A DNA stretch of 54,975 nucleotides from an uncultured Flavipsychrobacter sp. (GTDB lineage Bacteria; Bacteroidota; Bacteroidia; Chitinophagales; Chitinophagaceae). Location of the stretch: assembly GCA_964478855.1 (NCBI GenBank), contig CAYZKL010000003.1:19686-74660 (forward strand), read 5' to 3'. The notes beneath the pieces are model-generated. The model was not told where the DNA came from and searched no databases. It was given only the letters and a program-made list of their open reading frames with translations. Below are positions 35,744 to 54,975 of this stretch, one piece after another (position 1 is the first letter of the stretch; each line of letters opens with the position of its first letter). Both the position numbers and the translations under genes were made by a program.

Positions 35744-35765
35744 GAGGTCGAAAGCGGACATGAAC
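35744..35765 (-). other. att site: displaced 3' fragment of a tRNA, probably tRNA-Cys
   Basis: Minus strand reads GTTCatgTCCGCTTTCGACCTC, compared with the tRNA 3' half GTTCGAATCCGCTTTCGACC-T-C (T-arm, acceptor strand, U73). No 5' half follows, and it lies next to an integrase. Confidence 0.7.
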
Positions 35766-35883
35766 TTGCTTTAGCATACCTTTCTTTACTTTACCTTAGT
35801 TATTTGCAGAATAAGCCACCACAAAGTATTTCAAGCGACAATATCATATCATTGAATAAATTTGATATGGTAAAATAAAAATG

Positions 35884-35908
35884 TACCGTACCCCATTACC
35901 GTACCCCA
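35884..35908 (+). repeat. Tandem 12-bp direct repeat, candidate integrase arm-type sites
   Basis: TACCGTACCCCA at 35884-35895 and 35897-35908, between att and int. Confidence 0.6.
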
Positions 35909-35954
35909 GTTATTAGCAGTAACTTTGTGATTCATTCCCAAATTATAGAAATTC

Positions 35955-37295
35955 ATGACCATTTCTTTTTATCTAAAGCGTCCGAATAGTGATAATCCTA
36001 CAATTATTTTTGCCCGTATTTATTATGGCAGTTATGAAACTAAGTGTTATACAAATAAGAGTATTCATCCTGACTTTTGGAACAAGAAGACCAAAAGAGC
36101 CAGGGAAACAAAGAAATTTCCACAATATCCTGAGTTTAATACTGGCCTAAATAAGATAGCCGATAGCATCGAAGCAATAATATTGAATTACCAGAATGAA
36201 AATAACGGATTCTACCCTACGCCGGAAAAGCTAAAGCCGTTAATGGATGCAGAAATAAGAAAGGTTGGCATTCCTACCAAACTTACTTTTATAGAGTTTT
36301 TTAATGATTTCATTTCAAGATGTGAAAATGGTACAAGGCTACACCCTAAAACGGGTCATCCAATCACAACTGGTACAATTAAAACCTATAAGACAACTTT
36401 GGAGTGTATAAAAAACTACGAAATCCACAGGAAGAAAAAAGTAGATTTCGAAATTATTGACATGCCGTTCTATTCTGATTTCACAAAATATCTTACCCTA
36501 ACAGCAAAGCAATCTACAAATTACATCGGGAAGAGCATCAAAGTATTAAAAACTGTTCTTCAGGATGCTACTGAATTGGGAGTAAATAAAAATATGGCAT
36601 TTAGGAGCAAGGGATTTACAACAATAAGCGAAGAGGCTGATACAGTGTATTTAAGCGAATTGGAACTTGATGAAATCAAGGAATTAGATCTTTCACATAG
36701 CCCAACCTTAGATTCACTTCGTGATCTATTTTTGGTTGGATGCCATACAGGATTACGGTTTTCAGATCTATCCTCTCTTAGTCCTTCTCAAATTTCAGGG
36801 GATTTGATTACACTAACTCAAATTAAAACGAAAAAAGCAGTTGTAATACCTGTACATGATACAATAAAGGAAATATTGAAAAAATACAATGGCAAACTCC
36901 CTCAAGCTTTAAGCAACCAAAAAAGTAATGAGTATCTTAAGGATATATGTAAAATGGATAATTTACCTTTATTGAAGACAACAGTAACGTTTTCCAGGAC
37001 AAAAGCCGGTGAAAGAAAAGTTCAAAGTTTAGAAAAATGGAATTTAGTTACAACCCATACAGCACGGAGGTCCTTTGCAACGAATGAGTATTTAGCTGGC
37101 ACCCCTACACTAACCATTATGGCGATAACAGGGCATAAAACAGAGAAAGCATTTCTGAAGTACATTAAAGTTACTCCAGATCAACATGCAAAGATTTTAC
37201 AAGGTCTTTGGTCGGAAAGAAAGAAGAAAAAAGATGAGGTAGAATCCAGCAAAATAAAAAAGACAACAAAAGTTACATTTAATGCGGATCAATAA
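35955..37295 (+). CDS. int: Tyrosine recombinase/integrase (Bacteroidota type, with arm-binding and SAM-like domains)
   Basis: ISFYLK N-terminus, TGLRFSD, QIKTKK, HTARRSFAT, TGHKTEKAFLKY; TAACTTTG -7 at 35920-35927. Confidence 0.95.
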   Translation: MTISFYLKRPNSDNPTIIFARIYYGSYETKCYTNKSIHPDFWNKKTKRARETKKFPQYPEFNTGLNKIADSIEAIILNYQNENNGFYPTPEKLKPLMDAEIRKVGIPTKLTFIEFFNDFISRCENGTRLHPKTGHPITTGTIKTYKTTLECIKNYEIHRKKKVDFEIIDMPFYSDFTKYLTLTAKQSTNYIGKSIKVLKTVLQDATELGVNKNMAFRSKGFTTISEEADTVYLSELELDEIKELDLSHSPTLDSLRDLFLVGCHTGLRFSDLSSLSPSQISGDLITLTQIKTKKAVVIPVHDTIKEILKKYNGKLPQALSNQKSNEYLKDICKMDNLPLLKTTVTFSRTKAGERKVQSLEKWNLVTTHTARRSFATNEYLAGTPTLTIMAITGHKTEKAFLKYIKVTPDQHAKILQGLWSERKKKKDEVESSKIKKTTKVTFNADQ

Positions 37296-38157
37296 AAAAC
37301 TAAGGATTCTAAATGTATATCCAAATAAAGGATACACAACTTGTAATTTTAATTACATTTCGATTGAAAACCTGTTTTGGGGTCAGCTAAAAGACCATTT
37401 GATTTCATTTTCGTTTAATCAACTTTCATCCAATCTCCATTTTACAATTGCTTTTAATCAGAATAGCAATAAAATAAACCTTCATCTTACAAAGAATGTA
37501 AAAGATCCCCTTAATAAACCGAAAATCACTATTCTAAACATTACTAAAGAACTACTCATCAAAGTAGAACCTTATTTTTTAAATGCAATAGTTAAATCAT
37601 TTTTCGAACCTATAGATATTAATACTTTAGGGAACAAGACTGAAATAATATTCTTACCTTCTAAAAAAGCCAATAGCGGTAAAAAGTCAAAATTATTAAT
37701 GACTAAGTTGGTCGCTCACCTCGAACCAATTATAAGAATTAAAAGCCAAAGGTTAAAAGTAATTGGCAGTATAGAAAAGCAGCTTGAAATATTTTACAAA
37801 AATCAAGAGGACACTTTATTAAGATCAATTCAATTTACTAAAACTAACTTCCAAAATTCAAATTCAGCAGTTGCAAAGGCTGATGATGCAATTTTATTTT
37901 TATCAAAAATAAATGGGCGATGGTTTAAGTTAACAAATAAAAGTCTTCAAGAAATAATGGACTCCGTCCTTGGCGAAGATCTACATAAAATGATTAACTG
38001 TTCAATAAAAAGAGCCATTATAATATTGAAAACCGCAACAACGGAAAAAGAAACACACCATTTCAAAAGAACAATAACTATAGTCAGAAACCCAAATATC
38101 ACAAATGAAGTAAATCAACTTTGGAACTTCATAAAACCAATTTATGTCGAGCAATAA
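37282..38157 (+). CDS. Hypothetical protein
   Basis: 291-aa ORF overlapping the int stop; no motif recognised. Confidence 0.6.
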   Translation: MRINKKLRILNVYPNKGYTTCNFNYISIENLFWGQLKDHLISFSFNQLSSNLHFTIAFNQNSNKINLHLTKNVKDPLNKPKITILNITKELLIKVEPYFLNAIVKSFFEPIDINTLGNKTEIIFLPSKKANSGKKSKLLMTKLVAHLEPIIRIKSQRLKVIGSIEKQLEIFYKNQEDTLLRSIQFTKTNFQNSNSAVAKADDAILFLSKINGRWFKLTNKSLQEIMDSVLGEDLHKMINCSIKRAIIILKTATTEKETHHFKRTITIVRNPNITNEVNQLWNFIKPIYVEQ

Positions 38158-38380: not shown

Positions 38381-38683
38381 ATGATAGAGACATCAGGTAT
38401 TTTATTCTGTCCAGTTAGCCTTTCTTCTTTAGAAGAACTAATTGAGAAATCAGTGTCCAATGGCATTGCAAAACAATTAGCCATTTCACCTCCAATAGAA
38501 ATTTCAAAAGACCAAGAAAATCAATTTTTAACTAGGAGAGAGGCCGCAAAGTATCTTGGCATATCACTTGTAACTCTAAGTGATTGGAGCAAGTCCGGAG
38601 TAGTCACTGGATATAGGATTGCATCCAGAGTCCGTTATAAAAGAAACGAACTTGAGAATTCGCTAAAGAAAATGAAAGTTTAG
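38381..38683 (+). CDS. Excisionase-like HTH (HTH_17/MerR-like) protein
   Basis: FLTRREAAKYLGISLVTLSDWSKSG...YRIASRVRYKR.EL. Confidence 0.85.
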   Translation: MIETSGILFCPVSLSSLEELIEKSVSNGIAKQLAISPPIEISKDQENQFLTRREAAKYLGISLVTLSDWSKSGVVTGYRIASRVRYKRNELENSLKKMKV

Positions 38684-39068
38684 CCTGACCCTTAAGCAGG
38701 CTGCATTACAAACCTTCACAAAGGCATTATATCTCCTCAAATTTAGGCTTTACACTTCCAAAGCATGGAAGGGCCTGAGTTGAGAAATTTGGTTGGCAAT
38801 ACTAAGGTTAAACCTAATTATTAAAAATTCTCAAAGGATTAAGGCAGATAAGCAATTTGCAAAATTGCTCTTTATCTTATAAACAACGCAGTTGTTTATT
38901 AAGTTATAATATTTGTTCTATAGTATGTTTATCTTATTGTATAGTTAACCTATTGTATAGTTATATAAGATTTGGTCGAAAATGACAAAAATGAATTAAT
39001 CAGATCTGATGATATCAATTTAATCAATAATGAGGAAATTGATTTAGTCAATATTGACAAAATTGAAA

Positions 39069-39560
39069 ATGAGTAAAGAGTCTATAGTAGCAACAGATAG
39101 CAGAAAGGACAATAATTTTCTCAGAGTAAATAGAACTCTGAGGAAATTGTATGGTAATGACATCGCAAATTTAATTGCATCGCTAAAAGAGCATATTGAC
39201 AACTTAGAAGATAAAGAAGCCAAAGGCAACCTAATGGGGCGTATACGTGATGGTGGCTTTGTATATTTTGACAGGTTAAAATTAGCTGATAAAGAAGCAA
39301 TCAATGTAACTACTCTTGATAAATACATTAAGGTCCTTGTCGATGTCTTCAAACTATTTAAGAAAGAATTGCACGACACACCACCCAAAATTTACATAGC
39401 ATTAGACAGGGACGTGTATGCTGCATTATGTGATGGAACTTTAATCATCGAGTCCGAGCTCAATGATTATCAAAAAAATAAACGTGGGTTGAACAAGAAA
39501 AAAACAAAATGGGATAACCCTGATTTTCGAAAACAATTTGCAGCTAAAGGATCAAAGTAA
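39069..39560 (+). CDS. Phage replication-initiator-like winged-helix protein
   Basis: FLRVNRTLRKLYG..A.LI..L...DGGFVYF..KLA......TLDKYIKVL......PPKIYI resembles the N-terminal wHTH of phage replisome-organiser proteins. Confidence 0.5.
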   Translation: MSKESIVATDSRKDNNFLRVNRTLRKLYGNDIANLIASLKEHIDNLEDKEAKGNLMGRIRDGGFVYFDRLKLADKEAINVTTLDKYIKVLVDVFKLFKKELHDTPPKIYIALDRDVYAALCDGTLIIESELNDYQKNKRGLNKKKTKWDNPDFRKQFAAKGSK

Positions 39561-39700: not shown

Positions 39701-40357
39701 ATGGCAAAAAGTGAAGAAACAGCTAACGTACTGAAAATTTATGATGGGTATACCCTATCAATCGATAGCATCATTAAAAATGCAAATAGGTCCAAAACCG
39801 GTCCGACAGAGTCTCAATTTCACTGGTCATCTCCAAATAAAGATTTTCAAATTACCATGGATCTTTATTTAAATGGATTTGAAAAGTGGATGCAGGTTTC
39901 TCACTACAAATACAATACAGATACGCAAATTGAAAGCTATTGCATTCTCATCACTTCGGTCAAAAGTAACTTGGGGAGGGGAGATATACTCTACTGGCTG
40001 TGTCCAATAACATTGACGAGGTGCAAAATACTCCACCTTATAGGCGATACAGGCCCATTTAGGCATAGATCTGCTTACAGTCAACACGTATACTACCCTA
40101 CACAACTTTTGTCTAAAAAAGATAGAAAGGATTATACCTGGCAGGTTATTGAAAAGAAGATAGTACCTGAACTCGAAAAGCAAGTTGTCAAATCGCATTA
40201 CAGAAACAAAGAGACAAAGTTGCTTGCTCGCATTTCAAACTTGAAGAAAAAGGCTTTCAATTACAAATACGAAGAGCTTTTCAAACTTGAATACAAACGT
40301 CCTACTCTTACTCAAATAAAAAGTAAGTTCCCTGAACTAAGAGGTCTCCGAGTATGA
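39701..40357 (+). CDS. Hypothetical protein typical of Bacteroidota islands, with a CP..RC motif
   Basis: SNLGRGDILYWLCPITLTRCKILHL, F.HR.AY...YY..Q, K.HYR.K.TK. Confidence 0.65.
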   Translation: MAKSEETANVLKIYDGYTLSIDSIIKNANRSKTGPTESQFHWSSPNKDFQITMDLYLNGFEKWMQVSHYKYNTDTQIESYCILITSVKSNLGRGDILYWLCPITLTRCKILHLIGDTGPFRHRSAYSQHVYYPTQLLSKKDRKDYTWQVIEKKIVPELEKQVVKSHYRNKETKLLARISNLKKKAFNYKYEELFKLEYKRPTLTQIKSKFPELRGLRV

Positions 40358-40383
40358 ATAAAACCAATAAAACATTGAGGTAA

Positions 40384-41676
40384 CTAACTTTTTTTTGAAC
40401 CTTGCAATGGCTTTCGAACATTTACAATTAAAATAGCAGATGATCTTTTCCCATTTATTATAGTTGCTATTTCAAATCTTGTCGTCTTTTGTAGTGGGGG
40501 AGTATCAATTGTGTCACAGGCTTTTACCTGAAATGATTTCTCATTGTAGTCCAATGATACGTGAGCAATATTTTTCACTCGCCAATATATCTTTGTTGAT
40601 TCACCGTAATTTATCATTCGTCGCAAAGCATCAAAACTTACAATTTGGGGAGGGTTAATTTTTATATTTAGTTTCGAAGATTTGCCCACAATTCCATTTG
40701 ACGTAGTTAGTAAAAAAGTTGTTGAAGAAAATATGGGACCAGTAAATCTTGAACCTGAAGCTGGATAATTCCCAGCAATTTGTCCACCAGTAATAGATAT
40801 TGACTTACCTCCAATAACACTCCAATAAATCTTACAACTGTCACCTAAATCAACAGAATTTGGTTGAGCATAAAAAGTATCTATTCTAAAGTTAGTTTTG
40901 TTCGTTACATCATTACCCTTTTGTGCTTTAGGTAAACTAATAGGTAAAGAATTTGAGTTGGATTGTTGAGGGTTCATTTGTTTAAAGGAATCATCACTTT
41001 TATCAATTGTAATTGTTTTTTTTAAAACATCATTTCCATTGGGTACCATATGTCCTTGATATCGAAAAACGAATGTAATAACAAGAAGAAGAATTGTCAA
41101 TGCATAAATTGCAAAAGTTAGTGGTGTAACTCGAATTCGAATTTGTGCTTTATCAAACAGAGGTCTGAATTTTTTTTTCAATAAATTATCATAAGTGAAT
41201 GTATTAATGTCCTGAATTTTTATAAAAAACTCACCAATATTCTCATGTATTTTCTTGTATTTTAGTTTGTTGTGAAATGTATGAGAGTTCTCATGCTCCG
41301 ATAATAATTTAATTGCTTCCTGGTATTTTGATTTCCAAAAATCATAATACACTTGTTGACTTTCACCAGTGAAAATGTCTGCATTAGGTAATAATACCGG
41401 CAAAATTCTTTCTTCAAATTCATGTGAATTAATTAGCTCTTCAACCTCATACATGCAATTTGGACTTTTCAAATATTGATCACTTATAATAACTATTACA
41501 AAATCACTTTTGCCTATCCTATGCATAAATTCTTTTATGCTCTTAGCATAACCAATATCTCTTCGATCTATAAGTAAATCAACATCGTAATTTTCAAATG
41601 CGCTGGCTATAACATCAGCTTCGACCTGATTGGAATGGCAATATGAAAGAAATATTTTTCGTCTTTTTTTAAACAT
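40384..41676 (-). CDS. TIR-domain protein with one TM helix and two Ig-like C-terminal repeats
   Basis: IFLSYCH, SDFVIVIISDQYLKSPNCMYEV (catalytic Glu position); TM LTFAIYALTILLLVITFVF; repeats IDTFYA..GDSCKIYWSV and IVSFDA..GESTKIYWRV. Confidence 0.85.
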   Translation of the reverse strand: MFKKRRKIFLSYCHSNQVEADVIASAFENYDVDLLIDRRDIGYAKSIKEFMHRIGKSDFVIVIISDQYLKSPNCMYEVEELINSHEFEERILPVLLPNADIFTGESQQVYYDFWKSKYQEAIKLLSEHENSHTFHNKLKYKKIHENIGEFFIKIQDINTFTYDNLLKKKFRPLFDKAQIRIRVTPLTFAIYALTILLLVITFVFRYQGHMVPNGNDVLKKTITIDKSDDSFKQMNPQQSNSNSLPISLPKAQKGNDVTNKTNFRIDTFYAQPNSVDLGDSCKIYWSVIGGKSISITGGQIAGNYPASGSRFTGPIFSSTTFLLTTSNGIVGKSSKLNIKINPPQIVSFDALRRMINYGESTKIYWRVKNIAHVSLDYNEKSFQVKACDTIDTPPLQKTTRFEIATIINGKRSSAILIVNVRKPLQGSKKS

Positions 41677-41826
41677 AATTACGATCAAGTATTTGAAAAT
41701 ATGGATATTATTTATAAATCCATAATGCCTTCTGATAATGCAATAGGAATTCTATCAATCTATATAAACTAATCCATAATTATATTAACGTTTTATTTCA
41801 TTTATATAGATTAATTTTGTTTCTAT

Positions 41827-42030
41827 ATGATACAAGACAGCGATTTTGATTTCATTACCAGGCTGACATTGAAAAAACGGAAGATCGCAAGGAGAATAGG
41901 AATTAAGCCGCCATTGGCTGATCGTAAACTGAGTGACGTTGAGTCTCTTTACCGATTCACTCAGATGCAAACTGAAAAAATGATAGAAGTCCTCGAACAG
42001 ATCGCAGAAGAACTAAATTCATTTTATTAA
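41827..42030 (+). CDS. Small hypothetical protein, first gene of the tail module
   Basis: 67 aa; TAATTTTG -7 motif at 41812-41819; 17 nt upstream of the next ORF. Confidence 0.5.
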   Translation: MIQDSDFDFITRLTLKKRKIARRIGIKPPLADRKLSDVESLYRFTQMQTEKMIEVLEQIAEELNSFY

Positions 42031-42047
42031 TTAAAAATCAGAAAAAT

Positions 42048-42476
42048 ATGAGTACAGCTACTATTACTATTGCCGGCAAAAATTATGAAGTAGGAAAACC
42101 AAATGTAGAAGAGCTTCAGCGCATTTTAGAATTGAAAGCATTCTTGATGTCCAAGGAGTGTGGTAATGCGGACCCTGGCCTTAAGGAAAATTTCGCAACC
42201 GCCATATCAACATTTGAGATAATGCTGCCACAGCTAAAAATTGATCACAAGGTGCCTTGGTTGGTAATGCTGCCACAGGCCATTATCCTTGAAATGGTAC
42301 TGACATATTTTAACGACTACCTGCCATTTATCAACGATGTGACAGTTGAAGTCGCAATTGCTGATGCCTTTGGAGCATTCAATAGGAGCGTGTCTATTAT
42401 GCAAAAAACTTTTGTAGATGTGCTTCAACAAATAAGCGTTATAGTCAGCACCAATCAGCTGGGCTACAAATCATAA
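42048..42476 (+). CDS. Putative phage tail assembly chaperone-like protein (paralog A)
   Basis: ITIAGKNYEVGKPNV beta-start; AISTF shared with the next ORF; upstream of the tape-measure-like gene. Confidence 0.55.
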   Translation: MSTATITIAGKNYEVGKPNVEELQRILELKAFLMSKECGNADPGLKENFATAISTFEIMLPQLKIDHKVPWLVMLPQAIILEMVLTYFNDYLPFINDVTVEVAIADAFGAFNRSVSIMQKTFVDVLQQISVIVSTNQLGYKS

Positions 42477-42485: not shown

Positions 42486-42899
42486 ATGATAAAAAATAAA
42501 GAAATGAAAAACACTACCGATGTAAAAATGTTTGACAGAGCATTCGCAGTACCATTCCCGACTACAGGTCAGTTTCTTGATATCCAGGTTATCAAGGCAA
42601 AATTGACAGAAGAGCGATACTCTTCTTTCATCTCCCTTCAAAGGGATGGATTATTGGCAACAGTCATATGTGATGCTATTTCCACATTCAGTGTCCTAAT
42701 TGGTGAAGAACTAAGGGCTGCTATGAATGTAAAGTCATTGCTGGATCTACCGTTAGTAAATATCTTTGAGTTAACCTATGCTTTCAAAGATCAGTATTCC
42801 CCGTACTACGAAGAAATAATGATGGTTATTTCCAACCCCAAACAGCACATAGAGAATACTACTACCAAAGATCAAAAAGTCACAAATGCTGTTGTATAA
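42486..42899 (+). CDS. Putative phage tail assembly chaperone-like protein (paralog B)
   Basis: FPTTGQFLDIQVIKA.L...Y, DAISTFSVL, VKSLLDL; canonical chaperone position. Confidence 0.6.
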   Translation: MIKNKEMKNTTDVKMFDRAFAVPFPTTGQFLDIQVIKAKLTEERYSSFISLQRDGLLATVICDAISTFSVLIGEELRAAMNVKSLLDLPLVNIFELTYAFKDQYSPYYEEIMMVISNPKQHIENTTTKDQKVTNAVV

Positions 42900-43228
42900 T
42901 GTCTTTTATACAACATTCAAGAAATCTGGTTATTGATTTCAATAATCGGTTTCCATTTGATAAAATATGGCGAGAAAAGCATGGTGTTGCGTTATTTTCT
43001 GAAAAGCACTTAAAAACGTCCCAAATTGACATTTATCTTGAATGGCTGGAAGGACAATTGTTTGAAGAGTTCAAAAAGCAAATTTCTGATGAACGTCTGA
43101 TGAACGAAGAAGTTAAGAAAGGCAAGTACATCAAAGAGGCTGTAGAGTCAAAAGAGCAAGCAGACAAATTATTTTCACAACTTAAAAAAATTGATTTTGG
43201 TCAAATTAATATAAACATGTCGGAATAG
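42899..43228 (+). CDS. Putative second-type tail chaperone (GT-position protein)
   Basis: FNNRFPFDKIWREKHGVALFSEKH; TAATG-coupled to the previous gene and immediately before the TMP-like gene. Confidence 0.55.
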   Translation: MSFIQHSRNLVIDFNNRFPFDKIWREKHGVALFSEKHLKTSQIDIYLEWLEGQLFEEFKKQISDERLMNEEVKKGKYIKEAVESKEQADKLFSQLKKIDFGQININMSE

Positions 43229-45323: not shown

Positions 45324-45680
45324 CTATTGATCTGTATCAGTCTCCTTGTACCTTTTATATTTAAAAGGATGGCCAATTATCTTTTCTTGTAAGAAAAATT
45401 CACCCATCAATTTCAGAATTAATTTCAACTCATCAATGTTCTTTGGATCGTTGTTTATTAATTGGCCTGCTTGCAGCATTGCAACTCTATATCCTTCAAT
45501 TTTTACAAAAGGAATAGAGTTATCAGAATCTGTACACTTAGTTACAAACTCTTCGTATAAAAGTTGATTTTCAAAATGTACCGTCTTGCCTATGTAAAAA
45601 GGTGGTTTAGTATAAAGAACAAGCCCTGCTATCTGCAAGGCTTGGTTATTACATAGGAGAAAATCAGGAAGTTTTTTCAT
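45324..45680 (-). CDS. Hypothetical protein
   Basis: 118 aa, MKKLPDFLLCNN...VLYTKPPFYIG; ATGA overlap with the upstream ORF. Confidence 0.65.
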   Translation of the reverse strand: MKKLPDFLLCNNQALQIAGLVLYTKPPFYIGKTVHFENQLLYEEFVTKCTDSDNSIPFVKIEGYRVAMLQAGQLINNDPKNIDELKLILKLMGEFFLQEKIIGHPFKYKRYKETDTDQ

Positions 45681-45904
45681 GCAGTAAACTTCTCAGAATT
45701 TGACCGGTATATGAATTCTGATTTGTCAGAAAATGTCAGGAGAACAAAATCGAACTTGTACTTGCTTATTTGTTCCAAGTTGATTCTTTCTTGTGGTAAT
45801 GGAGTAGAGAAAACTTTGTATTGCATTATCTGTGACTCTTCATTACAGAATATTGCAGATTCTACTTTTCTGGTTTCTTTGTTGACTGTGGCTGGAGTGT
45901 TCAT
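45677..45904 (-). CDS. Small hypothetical protein
   Basis: 75 aa, translationally coupled to 45324-45680. Confidence 0.5.
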   Translation of the reverse strand: MNTPATVNKETRKVESAIFCNEESQIMQYKVFSTPLPQERINLEQISKYKFDFVLLTFSDKSEFIYRSNSEKFTA

Positions 45905-46039: not shown

Positions 46040-48514
46040 ATGTCGAACTTTAAATTTGTGCCTGAGTTGTTTGTAGAAGTGCGGGAATTGAATTTTATTT
46101 CAAAAACTGCGGACGAGTATGGATTTAGAAAAGCACTCCTCCATGATTCTGTAAATTATGGTTTGATAAAGTCAATATTGGACCCTTCATTTGACAATGG
46201 TCGTGTATCAAGGGATGTCGATTCTGGTACAGATAGAACTATTAAGATAAATCCTGTTCAAGGCATAGATAGCAGCGGCAATTTTATTCATTCACCATCC
46301 ATTATCAACCAAATACCAATAATTAACGATGGTAATTGGTATTGGGTTAAAATAAGGCATAGTTACACTAATCGTGAAAAAGGAACTGTATCAATAGCAA
46401 CCAATGGTGATCTTGTTGGTTCCGGCACTGAATTCACAAAAATACTCAGGGGCCAACCAAATTTCCCTTCCAAAATAAAACTAACTGATTCCACCTTCAA
46501 CACACTTGAATATCAAGTTTTAAGTGTCACAGATGACAATCATGCCATCCTTGCTAATCCTGCTGCAAACATAAGTGGTGTTGCTGAGTTCGTTTCTGAA
46601 ACTAACTTGCATTTTGCGGTTGTCGGCACATTTACTCCAGGTGTAGCGATTCCTCCAGGTGATAAGTATCCTTTCCAGTATGATTCAATGACCTACTCAA
46701 TAGAACTTGAAACTTCAACCAATACTCCACCAACCTATGTTCCTGGCCAAGAGTTCTATTTGGCCCGATTTACGGTTTCTGGAAGTGATGTTGTTATACA
46801 GGATGTAAGAAAAGACTATTACGAAACTAAAGGAAGTGAACTAATTACGACTATTGATAGATCTGCAAATCCATTAGTGGGTGTTGAATCTGTTAAATGG
46901 CAAACAAAAACCAATCCAGCATCTCAAAGCATAGTTGAAGTTGCTTGGGGTATGAGATCCGACAACTGGAGCATCAATTCAAGTCAGAATATAGTAACTC
47001 TTAATTCAGGATTGGGAGGAAAATACATAAACACTACCCTATTTACAGATGGAGATTTTAATGGATGGAGGCTATATACAGGAAATGGGAAATATAGCTA
47101 TGTGATATCCTCTATAAAAGCCGGAACTGCCATAAATTTATTCCTTGACACATTGCACGTTGATAATTATTCAACAGATGGAGGAACTACCCTGATAACA
47201 CAAACATTACTTGTTGTTCCAAATGCTGATACCATTGAATTCAAGTGTGAATCTGAACCAACTGATAGTGTTCCTTTAGTAAATAAGTTAGATTCGTTTG
47301 CAATAAATGATTTAACCGGCAAAGTTGAACTTGAAGTATATAAGCCAATATCAGTTTTCTATAATTTCCAGTACAGGTATAAACGTATTTGTGAATTTAC
47401 AGAATGGAGGACAATACCATCAGACAATTCAAACGGCTACTTAACAGAAGTTAGTTTTGATTCCGATGGAAATCTTATTTCTCCAGTAAGGCAAACATAT
47501 ACCCAAGACCCTGTTAATGGTTTTATAGAATTGACCGCTTGCCCTTGGTCTTACAGTGATTTTCAAAATAAAGTATTCAAAGGAGACAAAATAGGTGTCA
47601 ACATAATCACCTCGCTCACCTCCACAGTAACTTACAACCTTCAGGTAGGAGTTGATAAGAACTATCAATACATCGGAGGCGCACAATCCATAGCCTCAGA
47701 CACTATCTTCACCTTGTTAACCACTGGTGCAGTAGAAGGAAATGAATTCAGGATTCACTTTAATTGCTCATCACTTGGTTTATCCGGTCATAGCATTTTA
47801 ATCAAATCAGGGTCAACGGTTATCAAGACAATTGGAATTGGAGATGTCTATAGCATGTTAAACCAAGTTGGAGGAATAATCTTCACTTGTAAATATTCAG
47901 GAAGTGCCTGGTTAATATCACAGAATTACGATAATGGCATTCCAGGAAAGATCGAAGCAATTGATGGAGTGATAAGTGATCTCTTTGATATAACCGGAGG
48001 TGTAAATAATGCAAAAGGTAAAGTGATGGGGCTGTACGGTTATTCGCTCTGTAACGCATCCGGAACAGTAGATGGGGTAACAGTACCGAATCTTGCTTAT
48101 CGCTTCATTTTAGGGCAAGGAAATGACGGAGCGGGGCATATTGCATCAGTTGGGGATACAGGAGGTAATGTAGACATAAACCTTAGTACCGGACAATTAC
48201 CATCCCACAACCACTCAGCATCCCAGGGAAGCCATAGTCATACAGCAACAGCAAGTCCCCACGATCACCAAACACTTAACTCACTTGCGGATACCTCCCA
48301 AGGGGTAACAGGAGATGGGGGACGTGTGGCCACTGGAACTGAAACAGTGGAACCATCAGGTACGTTAAGTAGTAGAACAAGCTCGGAAACTGTCTCTGTT
48401 TCAATGTCAAGCGATTCAGCCGGTGCTATTACCATTGGAAATACCGGAAGTGGTGATGACATCAACATCCAAAACCAATATTATGCTATGATATATTGCA
48501 AGAAGCTTTATTAA
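46040..48514 (+). CDS. Phage tail fibre/baseplate-associated protein with C-terminal collar and HxH tip
   Basis: YLARF...IQDVR; LCN..G...VPNL..RFILG, TGG...NL...QLPSHNH, SHSH, HDH, QYYAMIYCKKL. Confidence 0.8.
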   Translation: MSNFKFVPELFVEVRELNFISKTADEYGFRKALLHDSVNYGLIKSILDPSFDNGRVSRDVDSGTDRTIKINPVQGIDSSGNFIHSPSIINQIPIINDGNWYWVKIRHSYTNREKGTVSIATNGDLVGSGTEFTKILRGQPNFPSKIKLTDSTFNTLEYQVLSVTDDNHAILANPAANISGVAEFVSETNLHFAVVGTFTPGVAIPPGDKYPFQYDSMTYSIELETSTNTPPTYVPGQEFYLARFTVSGSDVVIQDVRKDYYETKGSELITTIDRSANPLVGVESVKWQTKTNPASQSIVEVAWGMRSDNWSINSSQNIVTLNSGLGGKYINTTLFTDGDFNGWRLYTGNGKYSYVISSIKAGTAINLFLDTLHVDNYSTDGGTTLITQTLLVVPNADTIEFKCESEPTDSVPLVNKLDSFAINDLTGKVELEVYKPISVFYNFQYRYKRICEFTEWRTIPSDNSNGYLTEVSFDSDGNLISPVRQTYTQDPVNGFIELTACPWSYSDFQNKVFKGDKIGVNIITSLTSTVTYNLQVGVDKNYQYIGGAQSIASDTIFTLLTTGAVEGNEFRIHFNCSSLGLSGHSILIKSGSTVIKTIGIGDVYSMLNQVGGIIFTCKYSGSAWLISQNYDNGIPGKIEAIDGVISDLFDITGGVNNAKGKVMGLYGYSLCNASGTVDGVTVPNLAYRFILGQGNDGAGHIASVGDTGGNVDINLSTGQLPSHNHSASQGSHSHTATASPHDHQTLNSLADTSQGVTGDGGRVATGTETVEPSGTLSSRTSSETVSVSMSSDSAGAITIGNTGSGDDINIQNQYYAMIYCKKLY

Positions 48515-48550: not shown

Positions 48551-48982
48551 TTAGCTATTTAGATATTCTATGAATTCAGCTTCAACATTTTCGCTTAAAC
48601 AGACTGCATTTATTAAATCCTGGTAGTGATTTTCCGGCATGGGAATCTCGGTCCTGCGGAAGTCTCCTTTAATCAATTCCAACAGCCTTTTCTTGCTATA
48701 AGACTTAACAATATTACAGTCAAACCAGGATTCTTTTTTCAGCGGACAAAGCGGGTCCTTTTTTATATTGACAATTGTATCTGTTGAAAATTGTCTTGCT
48801 GCAACCCTTCTGTAGATCGACTCCTTTTGAGTACTGGCAATAACAAATTGGAATTCATCGTTAAAATTTCCAATACAGGTATACAAATGAGGATCGGTAG
48901 ATGACAATTCAGGATTTGCGGTAATAATTAAAACATCCTTTGGCCTTAGCGAGTCTATCATTACACTGGCAGGAAATTTCAT
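48551..48982 (-). CDS. Putative toxin, PemK/MazF-like fold, partner of the Panacea antitoxin
   Basis: Directly downstream of the Panacea gene; PHLY..I, IASTQ, PLKKESWFDCN pattern. Confidence 0.55.
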   Translation of the reverse strand: MKFPASVMIDSLRPKDVLIITANPELSSTDPHLYTCIGNFNDEFQFVIASTQKESIYRRVAARQFSTDTIVNIKKDPLCPLKKESWFDCNIVKSYSKKRLLELIKGDFRRTEIPMPENHYQDLINAVCLSENVEAEFIEYLNS

Positions 48983-48991
48983 AAGAGAATC

Positions 48992-49591
48992 TTACGATAA
49001 CGACTCTTTGTATATCTCTTTCACACACTCTAACACTTCAGTCGATTGATTAAAAACATGGTCGCCAAATGATGTTTCATTAAAAAAATCATCTGGGTTT
49101 ATTGTAAAACGACCATCAGGAGAAACTTCTAACTCATTTTTGAAACGCATCCATTCGTCAAACAAATGCGAATAGTCTGACAATTGCCATTTTGTCATAT
49201 TCGAAAATTTCTCAAAAACCTCTTCTAAAACCTTAATGTCCGTTTTAGAAAAAACTTTCAATTCAACAGGATTGGCAGAATTAAAGTTCCTATGGTATGT
49301 GTCAGTGGGAATAATATATTCAGCCGAATATTTAAAAGAGTCTTCTGGAAGAAATTCTGACTCTCTTTTAATCAAATTATATGTTGATGAAGCTACTGGG
49401 CCTAATTTCATCGCAAAATATTCGTCATTTGTTATCATACGCCCATATCTGCGCAGATGCAAACGATCAGCCAACCAAATCAATTTAACGGCCTTAAGCG
49501 TCTCAATGCTCCCACCTTCCTTTATTGCAAAAAGGTTTAAAGCTTGAGTAGCTTTCTTGTAATTAAATTGATTCATAATGATTGTGTGCAA
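48992..49591 (-). CDS. Panacea (DUF4065/SocA-like) antitoxin
   Basis: LKAVKLIWLADRLHLRRYGRMIT.D.Y.AMKLGPV.S, FS.MTKWQLSDYSH..EW. Confidence 0.85.
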   Translation of the reverse strand: MHTIIMNQFNYKKATQALNLFAIKEGGSIETLKAVKLIWLADRLHLRRYGRMITNDEYFAMKLGPVASSTYNLIKRESEFLPEDSFKYSAEYIIPTDTYHRNFNSANPVELKVFSKTDIKVLEEVFEKFSNMTKWQLSDYSHLFDEWMRFKNELEVSPDGRFTINPDDFFNETSFGDHVFNQSTEVLECVKEIYKESLS

Positions 49592-49733: not shown

Positions 49734-50003
49734 TTAAATATTTGAATTACGAATAGCAAGGTACCCATTATAGTCAATCAAGACCCCAATTACCGGCACC
49801 TTACTCTTCAGGTGCTTGTATTCAAAAAGAAAAGAATAGACCTTATGTCTCTTCCATTTTTCTCTTTCCATGAATTCTGTAACTGTTAAAAATTCCCTCT
49901 TGGCAATACCATCTTTTTTTATTTTCGCAATAAGCTTTCCTTGAGCTTCCAACTTAATGGTTATGCTTTCTATCAGTATTGCAATTTCAGTATGTATATC
50001 CAT
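49734..50003 (-). CDS. Small HTH-like hypothetical protein (paralog 1)
   Basis: REFLTVTEF....KRHKVY..L...KSKVPVIGVLIDY. Confidence 0.55.
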   Translation of the reverse strand: MDIHTEIAILIESITIKLEAQGKLIAKIKKDGIAKREFLTVTEFMEREKWKRHKVYSFLFEYKHLKSKVPVIGVLIDYNGYLAIRNSNI

Positions 50004-50009
50004 GTTGTT

Positions 50010-50309
50010 TTAATTATACCGTTTAATTTTTAAGAATTCTTTGTAGTTAATCATTATCCCAAGTTTCTTTACTCGACTTGTTATATAACGATGCTCACGG
50101 AGGATTCTATACATTCGACTTTGTGTTTGTGAAGGAGATTCACCAGGTCTTTTGATAATTTCTTGAAATTCCTTCGTTGTTAGCATTTTCTTTGATCCAT
50201 CTTCACCTCTCAGTAAATCATTTAATATTTTGATCTGCCTCGATAGCTTAAGTTCTAATAATTTAAGATCTCTTTTGAATGAAATCAGTTCATTTGTATG
50301 ATTTGGCAT
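50010..50309 (-). CDS. Small HTH-like hypothetical protein (paralog 2)
   Basis: KKMLTTKEF...QSRMYRIL...TSRVKKLGIMINY; ATG at 50309 preferred as the start. Confidence 0.55.
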   Translation of the reverse strand: MPNHTNELISFKRDLKLLELKLSRQIKILNDLLRGEDGSKKMLTTKEFQEIIKRPGESPSQTQSRMYRILREHRYITSRVKKLGIMINYKEFLKIKRYN

Positions 50310-50601
50310 GCCTGATTTTTTTGACAAACCAAGCACTTACAATTCATTATTACAAAATCATTTTTTGCCCATAAAATCCTTGGAAAAAGAAAGAAAAATT
50401 AACTTGAAGACCAATATATAATCTGAAATGACGTATGGAAGCGGATGTATAAAATTGAATCGGTGTCAAGAATACTAAAAGTCATTAAAATTAAAAAATT
50501 TTACTCGACACATCCTAAGCTTCGGTTTGCCTACAAATTAATACAATTTATAACGCTTCCAATCCGGCAATATACATTTGTTACTACACAGTTGCTTTTA
50601 T

Positions 50602-50628: not shown

Positions 50629-50631
50629 ATA

Positions 50632-51120
50632 TTAATCAACAAACTTTCGTAGCTGATCTATTATTGTCTCAAACCATTGCCGGAAATCGAGACATTCTAT
50701 TATCTCAGAGTAATCATACCTCACTTCCATTGATAGGTACTTCCAAAATTCAGTGATCCCAAAACACTCCATTAGCAATTCATAGTTTGAATAACGTTGA
50801 TCGTCTTCCTTAGTAAAAGTAATTTTTCTGAAGATGGACATAAGTTCTGTCATATTGTTATGAGAAAGTGTTTTCTTATTCTTCATCGTTTTGCAAAATG
50901 AGAATAGTTCTTCTATTGCCTGGAAACCAAGGCATATGTTATACTTTTCGTCCTTGGTAAAATCTTCACCGAAATTCCCTCCCTGGTAGCCATAAATAAA
51001 TGCATTCTCTTTGACATCGACAAATGCATGTCCAAATGAATTTAGAGGTTCATTGTACTCTCTGATTAACCCTAATGTTTGTTGGTTTAGAATGTTGTTA
51101 ACTGCTATTTTACTTTCCAT
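50632..51120 (-). CDS. Hypothetical protein
   Basis: 162-aa ORF; no motif recognised. Confidence 0.6.
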   Translation of the reverse strand: MESKIAVNNILNQQTLGLIREYNEPLNSFGHAFVDVKENAFIYGYQGGNFGEDFTKDEKYNICLGFQAIEELFSFCKTMKNKKTLSHNNMTELMSIFRKITFTKEDDQRYSNYELLMECFGITEFWKYLSMEVRYDYSEIIECLDFRQWFETIIDQLRKFVD

Positions 51121-51152
51121 AAAAATTGATTTTAATTATTAATAATGATTGA

Positions 51153-51548
51153 TTACTTAACGAGAGGAACTAAAACAAAATCCATGTTGATACCCTCAAA
51201 TCTGAAGGTGGGTCGTACAGAATCAATATGTGGTTGCCGGTTGTAAATTTCTACTCTACCCTCTTCTGAGTTTATTATAGTTGACAACACTTCACATAAT
51301 GCTTGGCTGTCTTGATTGACTTGATACCATGAATCGAAATCGTTCGATATATGGGTACGGATATACTTAGAAAGCTTCCAAAAAGAAATAGCTTTTCTAA
51401 TAAAATACGGTTCGTTGACTTCAGGACAGTTAATGGTCTTGCAATAAGCCCACATAAAACATGACAATGATCCTGGAATAACCGCTTTTACTTCAAGCTT
51501 GAAATTCTGGTAAGTGTTCTGAAAGTGCATCGTTCTAATTTTCAACAA
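51153..51548 (-). CDS. Hypothetical protein
   Basis: 131-aa ORF in an operon with 50632-51120; start uncertain. Confidence 0.55.
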   Translation of the reverse strand: MLKIRTMHFQNTYQNFKLEVKAVIPGSLSCFMWAYCKTINCPEVNEPYFIRKAISFWKLSKYIRTHISNDFDSWYQVNQDSQALCEVLSTIINSEEGRVEIYNRQPHIDSVRPTFRFEGINMDFVLVPLVK

Positions 51549-51549
51549 A

Positions 51550-51614
51550 TATATACCGTATATACGGTATATACAAATGAAATAACTTTGTATATATTGT
51601 ATAGACGGTATATA
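51550..51614. promoter_or_regulatory. Perfect 24-bp palindrome plus a degenerate second copy (operators)
   Basis: TATATACCGTATATACGGTATATA at 51550-51573; TATATATTGTATAGACGGTATATA at 51591-51614 (3 mismatches). Confidence 0.75.
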
Positions 51615-51639
51615 TACATACTTTTACAAAAAATATACT

Positions 51640-51834
51640 ATGGCAACCGATAAAACATTCACAGGTTTTAAAATTCCAAATGAAGTCTTGGCCAAGGCAA
51701 AATATATTGCTTGGTTTGAGAGAGAGACATTAACTGCAAAAATTGTAGATTATCTCGATTCAGAGATTTTGAAGTTTGAAAAGAAGAATGGAGCAATTAC
51801 AGATGAGCAGATAAAAAAGTCAGCAAAGAAATAG
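51640..51834 (+). CDS. Ribbon-helix-helix-like small DNA-binding protein
   Basis: TFTGFKIPNEVLAKAKYIAWFERETLTAKIVDYL: beta-strand then two helices. Confidence 0.65.
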   Translation: MATDKTFTGFKIPNEVLAKAKYIAWFERETLTAKIVDYLDSEILKFEKKNGAITDEQIKKSAKK

Positions 51835-51844
51835 ATTTACTTAT

Positions 51845-52306
51845 CTAAAAATTGACTGCAACTTTAGCAGCCTCTTCAATACGCTGATTGGACTCTTCCT
51901 TATTGGCCTCAACAATAGATGTACAATAGAATATTTCCCCTGTATTGGCCTTTAAACTCCCATCTTCTTGAGTTTTGAGTATAAGAAGTAACTTTCTTTC
52001 CGGAATTTCAAAAATGCCATTCTTAAATGAATAATGAAGTAAGGTAGAATGATTCATTATCCCAGGATCATTTTTGTAATTTCTCATTTTTGCAGTTAGT
52101 TTAATGTAGGAAACGGTATTCCTCACTTCCACAACATCACTGGACTTGAACTCCAATTTATACTCAGCTATATTCTGGCTGATCATATTTACAGATAACA
52201 AATAGAATGTCTTGCCGGTTATTCCAGAGTTAGTACAGGAATTAATTGTCAAGCTGATAGCGAGCAGTAAACTTAGTTTTAGTCTTGCATACATATATGT
52301 ATGCAA
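51845..52306 (-). CDS. Putative lipoprotein
   Basis: LLLAISLTINSC lipobox-like sequence. Confidence 0.55.
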   Translation of the reverse strand: MHTYMYARLKLSLLLAISLTINSCTNSGITGKTFYLLSVNMISQNIAEYKLEFKSSDVVEVRNTVSYIKLTAKMRNYKNDPGIMNHSTLLHYSFKNGIFEIPERKLLLILKTQEDGSLKANTGEIFYCTSIVEANKEESNQRIEEAAKVAVNF

Positions 52307-52341
52307 TATTATGCAAACTAAATTGGATTTTTCCTACCTGA

Positions 52342-52560
52342 ATGGGGAAAACCGAAAAAGAAATATTATTGAAGAAGATCGCAACAAGAGTAAAACAGTT
52401 GCGAGCTGCCAAAGGTTTAACCCAACGGGACATTATCTATTCAACAGACATCAATATCATCAGAATAGAAAATGCAGAAATAAATGTAACTATATACACT
52501 ATCGAGAGGCTTTGTGAATACTTCGAAATAAGCCTTGGTGAATTCTTTAAAGACCTTTAG
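52342..52560 (+). CDS. XRE/Cro-like HTH regulator
   Basis: RVKQLRAAKGLTQ, RIENAEINVTIYTIERLC.YF.ISL.EFF. Confidence 0.9.
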   Translation: MGKTEKEILLKKIATRVKQLRAAKGLTQRDIIYSTDINIIRIENAEINVTIYTIERLCEYFEISLGEFFKDL

Positions 52561-52690
52561 TAAGTCTATCAAACTAACTTTTACTCTCACTTTTTGTCTT
52601 CAAGCTTCCGAATATGGTTAATTACACTCCTACGAGAGTGTTTAAATATACGTTTCACCTAACTTTTTATAATTTGTCATCTTAACTCTA

Positions 52691-53542
52691 ATGACAAATA
52701 TGGACTTCAAATTTCTTGAACCAGAAAAAGCATTTTTTAGAAATCCTTATTCTATAGCTCCTCCTGGCTATAATAGGCAATATGTAGCTCATCCAATTAA
52801 TGATGGGGGTTCTGTTGAAATTGCAATATTTCAGGAACATCGGTACGCATTCTATTCATGGTTAAAATGGACAAATGAAAAGAAAAAAGTACCAAGTTTA
52901 GTTACTCTTGATTGGCACCAAGACTTATTTGCTCCAGACTCTTTAGAGAAAGAATGGTTATTAGGCTTGAATCAAGGTGATGATGCAGAGGTTTCATTCT
53001 TTTGTTGGGCAAAACTTGCCGGTAATAATGATGGTCACATACTCAGTGCGGCCTTTCTAAATTTGATTGGGAATGTGTATGTTCATTGCAGGCAAGGACG
53101 CTTTGCGAAAAATATCGAGATTCGTGAATTAATAGATCATTTAGGTAACATCCACTTAATAAAAATATTCAAGGAGTATACTGACCTTGAAAATGAGCTA
53201 TTAAATTCAGAAGAAAATGCCGTGTATTTTGATATCGATTTAGATTATTTCACCCTTGAAAATAACACTTCAAACGACAAACAAAGATTTACATACCTAA
53301 CTACAAAACAAATCAATGAATTGCTTGCACCTTCACGACCTTTAATAAATTGGATATTTGAAAGGTTGGAAGGCATGACAATAGCTACTGAACCTAACTG
53401 TACTGGAGGGTTACTTAAATCGAATAAACTATTAGAGAAAATAAACAACATGTACTTCCATCCAGCGATCTTTAAGTATCAGTGTAATTGGAAATGGAAA
53501 AAAGCGATTATAATTTTTTCCATAACGGATATCTGCACATAA
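52691..53542 (+). CDS. UPF0489-family (arginase/deacetylase-like) protein
   Basis: QEHRYAFYSW, VTLDWHQDL, YFDIDLDYF, TIATEP.CTGG. Confidence 0.75.
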   Translation: MTNMDFKFLEPEKAFFRNPYSIAPPGYNRQYVAHPINDGGSVEIAIFQEHRYAFYSWLKWTNEKKKVPSLVTLDWHQDLFAPDSLEKEWLLGLNQGDDAEVSFFCWAKLAGNNDGHILSAAFLNLIGNVYVHCRQGRFAKNIEIRELIDHLGNIHLIKIFKEYTDLENELLNSEENAVYFDIDLDYFTLENNTSNDKQRFTYLTTKQINELLAPSRPLINWIFERLEGMTIATEPNCTGGLLKSNKLLEKINNMYFHPAIFKYQCNWKWKKAIIIFSITDICT

Positions 53543-53543
53543 A

Positions 53544-54560
53544 GTGAATGAAACAGCAATGGAAATATTGAGACTTATTTATGATGGGTATAATAAACAA
53601 AGCAACACTTATGCTAAGTGCATTTTATTGATTCAGAGGAGGCTATTCTCATATACTGTGGCCTATGACTTTACAGTAAAAAATGGATATCCTATTTGCT
53701 CAGAGGCACATATTGATATGCTGATTGAAGCATTATGTGAAAAAGAAGGTGGGGATTTATGGGATGCTTATTCACAGGCCAAAATAAATGGCTCCTATTT
53801 TATTCATTTTGCTAATAAGAATGTTTCCGGATGTAATCCTTTTAATGTACCTCGATTTTCAGAAAAGGACTTTCAAAATGTTATAACAGAATTAGGAGGA
53901 AACAAAATTCCTGAATCAACAATTAAGACACCGGATTTTCTTTTAAACAAAGTAATTTATGAATTGAAGGACATTCAAACGGATAGTCTTTTTAACAAAG
54001 ATCGTCAGAATAAAATTGGTGAAATTTTTAGAAACAATCCTAAGCATTTTATCGATCTAAATCCAGAGATTAATCATGGTCAAGAATCCTTAAAATATTA
54101 CCAAACGATCAAGAACACAATTCAAACTCACATAAAAAAAGCTTCTGAACAGATTAAAGCATATAAAACTCAGAATGAATTCAATTCTGCTGGATTAATT
54201 CTGCTGAACACTGGCATGTTTAGTTTGCCTCATAAATTATTTGTGAAGTTTGTAGAACAAAGTCTCAATAACACTAAAACGGTGGATTTTGTATACATAT
54301 TCTCTCAAAACATGCAAGGTTCGTGGTTTGACCTTTATGCTAACTATGCAAGTGACTTTATTGGAGCTTTACCTGATGGAGGTGATAAGTTAAAAAAGAA
54401 GGTTGGACAATTGATTAACTCAAAAATGACAGATATGGCAAGAGGGGGCCAATTTGAATCAATTATCGATCAAATGCACCCAATTTCATTTGAAGCAAAT
54501 AATCAAATCTTCTACTGGAATCCTGGTGCAATTCCCTCAACCTTACCTAAAACAAAGTAA
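53544..54560 (+). CDS. Hypothetical protein with a PD-(D/E)xK nuclease-like motif
   Basis: KTPDFLLNKVIYELKDI, then IKKASEQIK and GLILLN. Confidence 0.55.
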   Translation: MNETAMEILRLIYDGYNKQSNTYAKCILLIQRRLFSYTVAYDFTVKNGYPICSEAHIDMLIEALCEKEGGDLWDAYSQAKINGSYFIHFANKNVSGCNPFNVPRFSEKDFQNVITELGGNKIPESTIKTPDFLLNKVIYELKDIQTDSLFNKDRQNKIGEIFRNNPKHFIDLNPEINHGQESLKYYQTIKNTIQTHIKKASEQIKAYKTQNEFNSAGLILLNTGMFSLPHKLFVKFVEQSLNNTKTVDFVYIFSQNMQGSWFDLYANYASDFIGALPDGGDKLKKKVGQLINSKMTDMARGGQFESIIDQMHPISFEANNQIFYWNPGAIPSTLPKTK

Positions 54561-54975
54561 TGTCAACAATCGAGCTAAATTCAGATCAACAGGTCGCATT
54601 TGAGGGTCTTCAAGAGTTTTTAAAACATCCTACATCTGACACATTTGTATTGAAAGGTTATGCTGGTACAGGTAAGACTTTTCTAATGCAATATTTAGCA
54701 CAATGGTTAAAAGAAAATAGTCAAGATTTTAAACTACTTGCATCAACAGGAAGAGCAGCTTCTGTTTTAAGAGGAAAAACCGGATTTGAAGCAAAGACTG
54801 TACACGGAATAGTTTATAAATTCAGCAGAGTAAACGGGGACTTTGACGATATCCCTGATGATGCTCCAATTGATAAATTCGGTCAAATGACTTTACAGTT
54901 TACTTTGAAGCCACCGGAATCCAAACCAACTATCTATATTGTTGATGAAGCATCAATGCTTTCAAGTGAAATAAC
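54560..54975 (+). CDS. SF1B (RecD/Dda-like) ATP-dependent DNA helicase, truncated by the window end
   Basis: Hand translation from the TAATG overlap: MSTIELNSDQQVA...LKGYAGTGKT...LLASTGRAA...AKTVH...IVDEASML. Confidence 0.9.
   Translation, partial: MSTIELNSDQQVAFEGLQEFLKHPTSDTFVLKGYAGTGKTFLMQYLAQWLKENSQDFKLLASTGRAASVLRGKTGFEAKTVHGIVYKFSRVNGDFDDIPDDAPIDKFGQMTLQFTLKPPESKPTIYIVDEASMLSSEI

Follow-up and report, generated by a model that had tools for sequence, protein, structure and literature searches.

A tRNA-integrated island of an uncultured Flavipsychrobacter carries tail genes of a lytic myophage family and may be a tail-hijacking satellite

A DNA stretch of 54,975 nucleotides from an uncultured Flavipsychrobacter sp. 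(hereafter the window; G000:C3:19686-74660, contig CAYZKL010000003.1) contains the left part of an integrated element, and as the same contig runs on, the complete element could be read. It measures 35,334 bp from att to att, is inserted in a tRNA-Cys gene and carries homologues of tail genes from a family of contractile-tailed phages, among them tail assembly chaperones, a tape-measure-like protein and an adsorption protein. The explanation that we favour, with modest confidence, is a satellite that combines its own tape measure protein (TMP) and adsorption protein with parts of a helper phage into chimeric tails. It draws on the boundaries and gene content of the element, on homology and synteny of its tail genes with phage operons, on their recurrence in sister islands and on signs of purifying selection.

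The left attachment core of 16 bp (attL, 35743-35758) is identical to the 3'-terminal letters of tRNA-Cys(GCA), and the genome contains it exactly twice. The other copy, attR, lies past the window's right edge (C3:90746-90761) at the 3' end of tRNA-Cys (minus strand, C3:90747-90818). An arm-type repeat of 26 bp (35884-35909) is matched at 25 of 26 positions just inside the right end (C3:90678-90703). Guanine-plus-cytosine content drops from about 0.46 to 0.33 at 35.7 kb of the window and comes back up near C3:91 kb, and it is 0.347 for the element versus 0.441 for the genome. In two loci of the same genus (L084 and L085), tRNA-Cys stands beside lgt without this integrase adjoining, and the other flank differs from that of the host. 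Among the sequencing runs listed, two DNA runs of one wastewater study, possibly the source, contain the sequence and no RNA run does. The contigs assembled at low depth from this study were uninformative, with neither an excision joint nor a clear depth step at both ends. The left part of the element runs from integrase and an excisionase-like helix-turn-helix (HTH) gene over a TIR gene and the tail cluster to a Panacea antitoxin and small regulators, and the roughly 16 kb that follow past the window (locus L002, to C3:90761) hold SOS-mutagenesis and defence cargo.

The nature of the tail cluster was read from phage operons. Three distinct IMG/VR contigs (L004, L006 and L007) and the phage isolate MA9V-3 share one tail operon order, namely sheath, tube, a gene of 120-146 amino acids (aa), a gene of 104-107 aa, a gene of 680-697 aa and a hub-like gene of 955-1139 aa; the MA9V-3 sheath was recognised by phrog_279 (E 9e-29). 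The three genes 3' of the tube match the products of 42486-42899 (+; 28-32% identity), 42899-43228 (+; 29-42%) and 43230-45311 (+; 693 aa, 27-32% over the full length). The last of these families lies after the tube and two chaperone genes and before the hub of a contractile operon in all four phage sequences, and because of this position of its viral members 43230-45311 was called a tape measure. This identity is likely and rests on synteny together with physical properties, namely a coiled coil in the N-terminal half and, around residue 266, a hydrophobic stretch rich in Gly. Six of seven TMPs examined have a hydrophobic stretch near residues 251-266, and the family comprises 603 clusters at E<=0.001. 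The preliminary description had counted three chaperone-like open reading frames (ORFs). By phage homology these are not three of a kind: 42486-42899 is a tail assembly chaperone (TAC)-like gene, 42899-43228 is a second chaperone-position gene found directly 5' of the TMP gene in the four phages, and 42048-42476 (+) is a diverged TAC paralogue with a C-terminal extension (20-29% identity to the TAC family). In front of them, a 67-aa ORF without family (41827-42030, +) opens the cluster. In the Atlas, the TAC was matched by Phage_TAC_2 at 0.91, which is weak. PDB sequence searches gave no match for the TAC alignment and only coiled-coil noise for the TMP alignment.

Comparison with the whole MA9V-3 genome matched only the TAC (32%), the second chaperone (29%), the TMP (30%; XQU63080), the adsorption protein (46%) and, from the cargo, dnaE2. 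MA9V-3 has a full virion module, of which the element keeps four structural genes. In the phage, the TAC, chaperone and TMP genes lie right after sheath and tube, and the fibre gene follows 12.7 kb and 11 genes downstream of the TMP gene. MA9V-3 is a Chryseobacterium phage (PV245944) of 103 kb with a contractile tail, which is described as strictly lytic and without integrase (PMC13120357). The tyrosine integrase family PF00589 was not found in five related IMG/VR records (26-89% complete), and the donors of the tail genes appear to be lytic. Further scans of viral sequences added little: a scan of viral contigs with a single TMP protein confirmed none of seven candidate stretches, and three island-side TMP alignments retrieved nothing, only the known phage L006, and nothing, respectively, which is weak evidence given the narrow patterns. 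As a separate observation, the MA9V-3-like contigs L004, L006, L039 and L081 have repeated small proteins between structural genes with a Gly/Lys-rich motif of the 'KIIGHTKSG' type.

The gene at 46040-48514 (+), previously described as a tail fibre, has a fibre-like tip, whereas the whole 824-aa protein is, according to its predicted fold (pLDDT 86), a baseplate-anchored multidomain protein. It is 46% identical to MA9V-3 XQU63068 and 49% to the phage protein P0162. Residues 40-261 of the model resemble a baseplate chain of phage 812 (phi812; Z 12.1, root-mean-square deviation (rmsd) 2.0, 102 aligned residues), residues 517-630 resemble CBA120 TSP4 (Z 8.1), the middle is Ig-like, and the tail-fibre/collar-like C-terminus matches tail fibres. 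This chain of phage 812 probably corresponds to the trimeric tripod protein, for which putative receptor-binding domains are described (PMC13433997). Among 401 genomes, a search with the fibre found two, and a 3.5-kb contig of G200 carries a fibre gene in phage synteny. The genomic context of one relative (P0205) was looked for in two genera without success (0 of 7 and 0 of 3). One phage contig has its fibre gene split into two ORFs of 342 and 453 aa (L035:10001-12397).

Head, terminase, sheath, tube and lysis genes were not recognised anywhere in the element, and the absence of capsid, terminase and sheath genes, first noted for the left part, extends to the right part that was then unseen. 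Nine custom profiles, each built from two to six phage or island homologues (major capsid protein, portal, large terminase subunit TerL, small terminase subunit (TerS)-like, TerS-like partner, sheath, tube, hub and wedge), gave no match at E<=0.05 in the six frames of the whole element. The module that would mark an MA9V-3-like prophage (capsid, portal, TerL, sheath, tube, hub, wedge, lysin, DNA polymerase) was not found there. Of the genes typical of phage-inducible chromosomal islands (PICIs; integrase, AlpA-type regulator, pri-rep, TerS or capsid-size genes), the element has the integrase, with no AlpA, primase or TerS family match in Pfam, PHROG or NCBIfam and no match to the custom TerS-like profile. 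When 216 phage proteins were searched against the host assembly (92.8% complete), the only structural matches were the element's own genes. This bears on the idea that the cluster works for the host, or for an injection particle that is not a phage (tailocin or eCIS-like) and draws its other genes from elsewhere in the genome. Contractile injection systems are generally known to contain a TMP and a fibre as well. However, no sheath, tube or baseplate gene that would fit, from the same family of phages, is present in the assembly and the nearest relatives of known context are phage genes, which makes such a particle very improbable.

The rest of the island belongs to a family that is usually tail-less. 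A 218-aa backbone marker (39701-40357, +), without a named function in Pfam, PHROG or NCBIfam, is common to the element, to three further TMP-bearing islands (G130, G397 and L032) and to 16 tail-less loci; a search of the 401 genomes found it at 19 loci in 16 of them, and it was not found in five phage records. The 16 other loci were read over 9-20 kb each, several being cut by contig ends, and many are islands with integrase, excisionase and replication genes at tRNAs that carry restriction or other cargo. The tyrosine integrase of the element (35955-37295, +; Arm-DNA-bind_5, SAM_5, Phage_integrase) is 49% and 46% identical to those of two tail-less marker islands (L069 and L072) and 33% to that of G130. 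As the backbone is usually tail-less and its marker lacks phage matches, the tail genes were presumably added to an existing island lineage, which counts against prophage decay, the alternative that had been argued against before. Marker family members carry an SNLGRG...CP motif, and the marker tags many small tRNA islands in Chitinophagaceae. A SRAP-dinB-dnaE2 cassette stands beside the marker in the element (L002:5111-10048) and in an unrelated genome (L077:4499-9709) with 50-53% identity, which suggests from gene content that marker islands spread SOS mutagenesis.

The TMP family recurs in five further non-phage loci (G130, L032, G397, L031 and L030), so the module is not a one-off. Integrase-linked loci with the same set of tail genes and no capsid had been proposed as a search target; the five share the TMP family and differ in their tail subsets. 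Their kits are a TMP alone (three loci, two of them on short contigs), TMP plus hub, and TMP plus hub, spike and baseplate gene; hub and chaperones are thus the partner types kept with island TMPs. G130 is a complete island of 13.2 kb from att to att at tRNA-Leu with 27-bp att repeats, in the order integrase, xis-like, rep-like, two genes common with G397, marker, a lone TMP and defence-like cargo. G397 follows tRNA-Val with marker, TMP, a hub with M15 peptidase domain, spike, baseplate gene and a putative MuF-like gene; neither integrase nor attR was found in the sequence portion examined. L032 has integrase, xis, marker, TMP and hub, L031 (8 kb) has an xis-like gene, TMP and cargo, and L030 (2.8 kb) has the end of a TMP followed by cargo. 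The last three come from a metagenome scan that gave four loci, the fourth being a phage. The TMP-bearing loci lie in records assigned to Chitinophagaceae. In the 401 same-family genomes, the TMP profile matched seven: besides the host itself, two genomes have full-length loci, two have broken remnants and two gave weak matches in a Gly-rich region (G162 and G363), whereas a class-wide search returned the host itself (1 of 401 genomes) and genus-level searches returned known loci only (1 of 171 and 1 of 11).

Two of these sister islands, G130 and G397, encode a homologue of MA9V-3 XQU63014, which the element of the window lacks. The named Atlas clusters nearest to the XQU63014 family are DUF2280, which presumably has a TerS-like role and serves as a lead only. 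This homologue is the shorter member of a gene pair common to G130 and G397 (L017:6904-8017; L021:17488-L022:767; L076:1266-2024), and judged from its family the pair is a candidate packaging-redirection module. The longer partner is also present in G186, where its operon runs off the contig at the point where a TMP might follow.

The island TMPs are full length (646-693 aa versus 680-697 aa in phages), and codon position 2 is conserved far more than position 3. Pairwise comparison of five of them gave nonsynonymous divergence (dN) of 0.33-0.78 with synonymous divergence (dS) of about 2 or more, or saturated, dN/dS values that take in any time spent in phages. With frames kept whole at such divergence, the codon pattern shows purifying selection on the island TMPs and not the neutral drift of a chance insertion. 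A FastTree analysis of 59 rows, 49 of them without context, separated six island from four phage TMPs with support 96. In IQ-TREE with 19 chosen rows, G130, L031, G397 and L032 formed a clade at 100, and the TMP of the window fell into a separate group with P0002, P0003 and P0019. These three relatives and P0016 come from contigs with the same lengths (33-92 kb) as those of fibres in the clade to which the window's fibre belongs. A single clade of all island TMPs was also considered and is weakened by the IQ-TREE topology and by the presence of P0162 in the fibre clade. On these trees, the simplest reading would be that capture happened twice or more: one old event gave rise to the clade of four islands, and in another, separate event a single phage lineage contributed the TMP, the chaperones, the adsorption protein and a small gene of regulator-like type.

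A passive history would instead mean that pieces of a prophage or an infecting phage recombined into the island recently and have not yet been lost. Truncated TMP remnants adjoin broken integrases in G379 (G379:C1:2568976-2569653) and G147 (G147:C24:44561-45063), which are, judged from this arrangement, decayed members of the same island family. G397, with its longer baseplate run and its MuF-like gene and with neither integrase nor attR found in the portion examined, fits this history too, and so does the phage-syntenic fragment in G200. Moreover, both the fibre of the window and two paralogous small proteins downstream of it (49734-50336, -; 89 and 108 aa) have close relatives in one phage lineage, as the phage contig L082 encodes a 91-aa homologue (28-30% identity) 1.6 kb downstream of its P0162 fibre. 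Against passive capture, the element joins four genes that come from two sites separated by 12.7 kb, one chaperone was duplicated and no frame is broken. The donors known so far are lytic, the 216 phage proteins queried revealed no further structural gene of MA9V-3-like type in the host genome, the nearest relatives of the integrase are in tail-less islands, and the four sister-island TMPs in their fully supported clade combine long internal divergence with purifying selection. Passive capture is therefore considered improbable.

The preliminary description had proposed a new satellite class acting in the opposite sense to those known, which is not supported, as the PLEs (elements resembling phage-inducible chromosomal islands) of Vibrio cholerae (PLE1, PLE4 and PLE11) already work on tails. 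With the lytic myophage ICP1 as helper, they are likewise integrated, capsid-less elements facing a lytic contractile-tailed phage. PLEs, whose core genes are repA, capR, tcaP, gpi, nixI, lidI and SviR, have capsid-remodelling, packaging and lysis functions, none like which were recognised in the element, and are about half its size, the excess of the element being cargo. A tape measure is likewise encoded by the satellites cf-PICI (capsid-forming PICI) and EPIP, of which EPIP encodes its own capsid. The cf-PICIs encode their own capsid according to a legend in PMC12987554, whereas libraries and the custom profile found no capsid gene in the element. PLEs encode a TMP and a TAC, some also the hub BhuB, and form chimeric tails with ICP1; in PLE11 virions, the PLE TMP and hub take the place of those of ICP1 (Mathur et al. 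2026, PMC12987554). The same study notes tmp genes in other satellites, too. Like PLEs, the element combines a TMP (by synteny) and a TAC (by homology) with the lack of capsid, sheath and tube. PLE TMPs and TACs are about 20-41% identical to those of the helper, similar to the divergence found here, and only some PLEs have a hub, as is the case for G397 and L032 among the islands (PMC12987554). By contrast, the element is from Bacteroidota, relates to an MA9V-3-like helper family and has another backbone, PLEs being set apart here by their description. It further encodes another type of chaperone, a paralogue of the TAC and a complete adsorption protein; for PLE11, the proposal is that tail fibres are taken from ICP1 (PMC12987554). 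Some sister islands carry a TMP alone, unlike PLEs. By analogy, the element may thus work like a PLE without being one. New are the phylum, the helper family, the variable tail kit and the island-encoded adsorption protein. Among the papers listed by literature searches, none described a Bacteroidota satellite with tail genes, and the satellite lists behind Fig. 10 of the Extended Data in PMC12987554 may be relevant to this novelty.

The tail genes had been suggested either to reprogram a helper tail, which in the form of a tail-hijacking satellite is the best reading, or to be decoys. As tail-poisoning defence cargo, diverged tail proteins would co-assemble, give non-infectious particles and protect the population, and the island itself would not be packaged and would spread otherwise. 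We consider this unlikely, with a fair number of observations on its side: defence cargo without tail genes is the norm for this backbone, the element has TIR, Panacea and DUF4297-HerA genes and no packaging gene was found in it, and G130 and L031 have a TMP without chaperones. Tail-assembly interference is also known from mobile elements, namely PICIs and P4-like elements (Tai, PMC11364771) and PLE11 (Rta, PMC12987554). Tai, Tab and Rta are, however, dedicated inhibitors in these sources, whereas the genes of the element are full-length homologues of phage structural proteins; Rta has 80 aa and no characterised homologues (PMC12987554) and does not amount to a full copy of a structural gene. 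A decoy would need neither a full-length TMP, nor chaperones, nor a whole hub with peptidase domain, nor a whole adsorption protein. The retained set rather parallels the chimeric-tail kit of PLEs, where deletion of tmp cut transduction by 96-99.9% (PMC12987554). As the islands, whose backbone is unrelated, keep PLE-type partners that have diverged from a lytic myophage to a similar degree, the chimeric-tail satellite is favoured over the other explanations.

In a chimeric-tail satellite, infection by an MA9V-3-like lytic myophage would lead to excision and replication of the island, and island DNA would enter helper heads by a packaging mechanism for which no gene was found here. The island TACs would chaperone the island TMP, and the resulting tail would consist of island TMP and adsorption protein with tube, sheath, hub and head of the helper. 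The 824-aa protein would be incorporated at the baseplate and change receptor use. More speculatively, the diverged TAC paralogue (42048-42476) may sequester the helper TMP so that the island TMP is used instead. A wider proposal, about which we are doubtful, is that a Bacteroidota tRNA-integrated satellite lineage captured the TMP of lytic myophages more than once with a variable kit, and that this member, by bringing its own baseplate adsorption protein too, would fix the ejection conduit as well as the receptor specificity of hijacked particles and could reach hosts closed to the helper.

Several findings weigh against the chimeric-tail satellite. No capsid-remodelling or TerS-like gene was found in the element by profile search, which leaves packaging unexplained. 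None of the 16 other marker loci has a phage structural match, and with a backbone usually lacking tail genes, these may be ordinary defence cargo. The tape-measure call of the preliminary description gained full-length homologues at the TMP position of myophage operons and no library name, be it from Pfam, PHROG, NCBIfam or PDB. The predicted TAC model (pLDDT 85; beta-hairpin plus helices) resembled the HK97 TAC 2ob9 weakly (Z 4.0, rmsd 3.7, 81 aligned, rank 3 of 48,161), and Foldseek with this model found nothing at E<=0.001; 3fgx and 3klu, which we take to be TACs, and the PLE1 TAC 5ir0 gave Z 3.1-3.2 (5ir0 at 3.1). At the ratio given in PMC12987554 (95 aa per 10-15 nm), 697 aa correspond to a tail of about 75-110 nm, shorter than the 163.6 nm measured for MA9V-3 (PMC13120357). 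The IQ-TREE support for the split of island and phage TMPs is only 74. The fibre clade of the window includes the true phage fibre P0162 (L082), and P0002, P0003, P0016 and P0019 may for this reason be phages, not islands. The phage-syntenic fibre contig in G200 makes temperate members of the phage family possible.

The PLE study leaves open what is gained by a tape-measure swap and how the satellite copy is selected (PMC12987554). The islands provide an independent series from nature, set against a type of lytic phage that is in culture, from TMP alone over TMP plus hub and TMP plus hub and spike to chaperones plus TMP and adsorption protein, which can be tested by comparison. If the 824-aa protein is indeed built into particles, satellites would control host range independently of the helper, and the movement of defence and SOS-mutagenesis cassettes among Bacteroidota would be affected.

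The ORFs first described for the left part are all present and intact, and Pfam and PHROG confirmed integrase, excisionase-like, TIR, antitoxin and regulator genes and additionally a Dda/RecD-like helicase. A 291-aa ORF without family in library scans (37282-38157, +) precedes the excisionase-like HTH_17 protein (38381-38683, +). The rep-like assignment of 39054-39560 (+; 168 aa) found no family support; a possible replication or winged-HTH protein, it weakly matches an ORF of the G397 island (28%, E ~6e-4). The TIR-domain protein (40384-41688, -) has a transmembrane segment and an Ig-like C-terminal part and is probable defence cargo. Two small ORFs without family (118 and 75 aa; 45324-45904, -) lie between TMP and adsorption protein genes. 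Downstream, 48551-49591 (-) encodes a Panacea/SocA antitoxin followed by a 143-aa putative toxin, so called from its position only, and 50632-52560 contains small ORFs without assigned function and an HTH_3 regulator (52342-52560). The window closes with a UPF0489/peptide-arginase-like gene, a 338-aa ORF and the start of the helicase gene (52691-54975, +). Past the window follow xseA, xseB, SRAP, dinB, dnaE2, an HSP90-like ATPase, a second SRAP, DUF4297-HerA and a 377-aa ORF; Pfam named xseA, xseB, both SRAP genes, dinB, dnaE2, the ATPase and HerA, and PADLOC named DUF4297-HerA. Promoter and terminator scans stayed at chance (33 versus 40 expected and 7 versus 5.9 expected), and no upstream motif common to island and phage tail genes was seen by eye.

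The UPF0489/peptide-arginase-like gene (52691-53542), which matches NF052474 below cut-off, heads an operon with the helicase and xseAB. The helicase matches PADLOC PDC-M16A, and the operon is possibly an undescribed defence system. To the left of attL, the window contains tandem genes for very large secreted-type proteins of 1252, 1633 and 1895 aa (20334-35592, -), the last of which by eye has the look of a metallopeptidase of the M4 type that carries Ig-like repeats and ends in a C-terminus of the type IX secretion system type.

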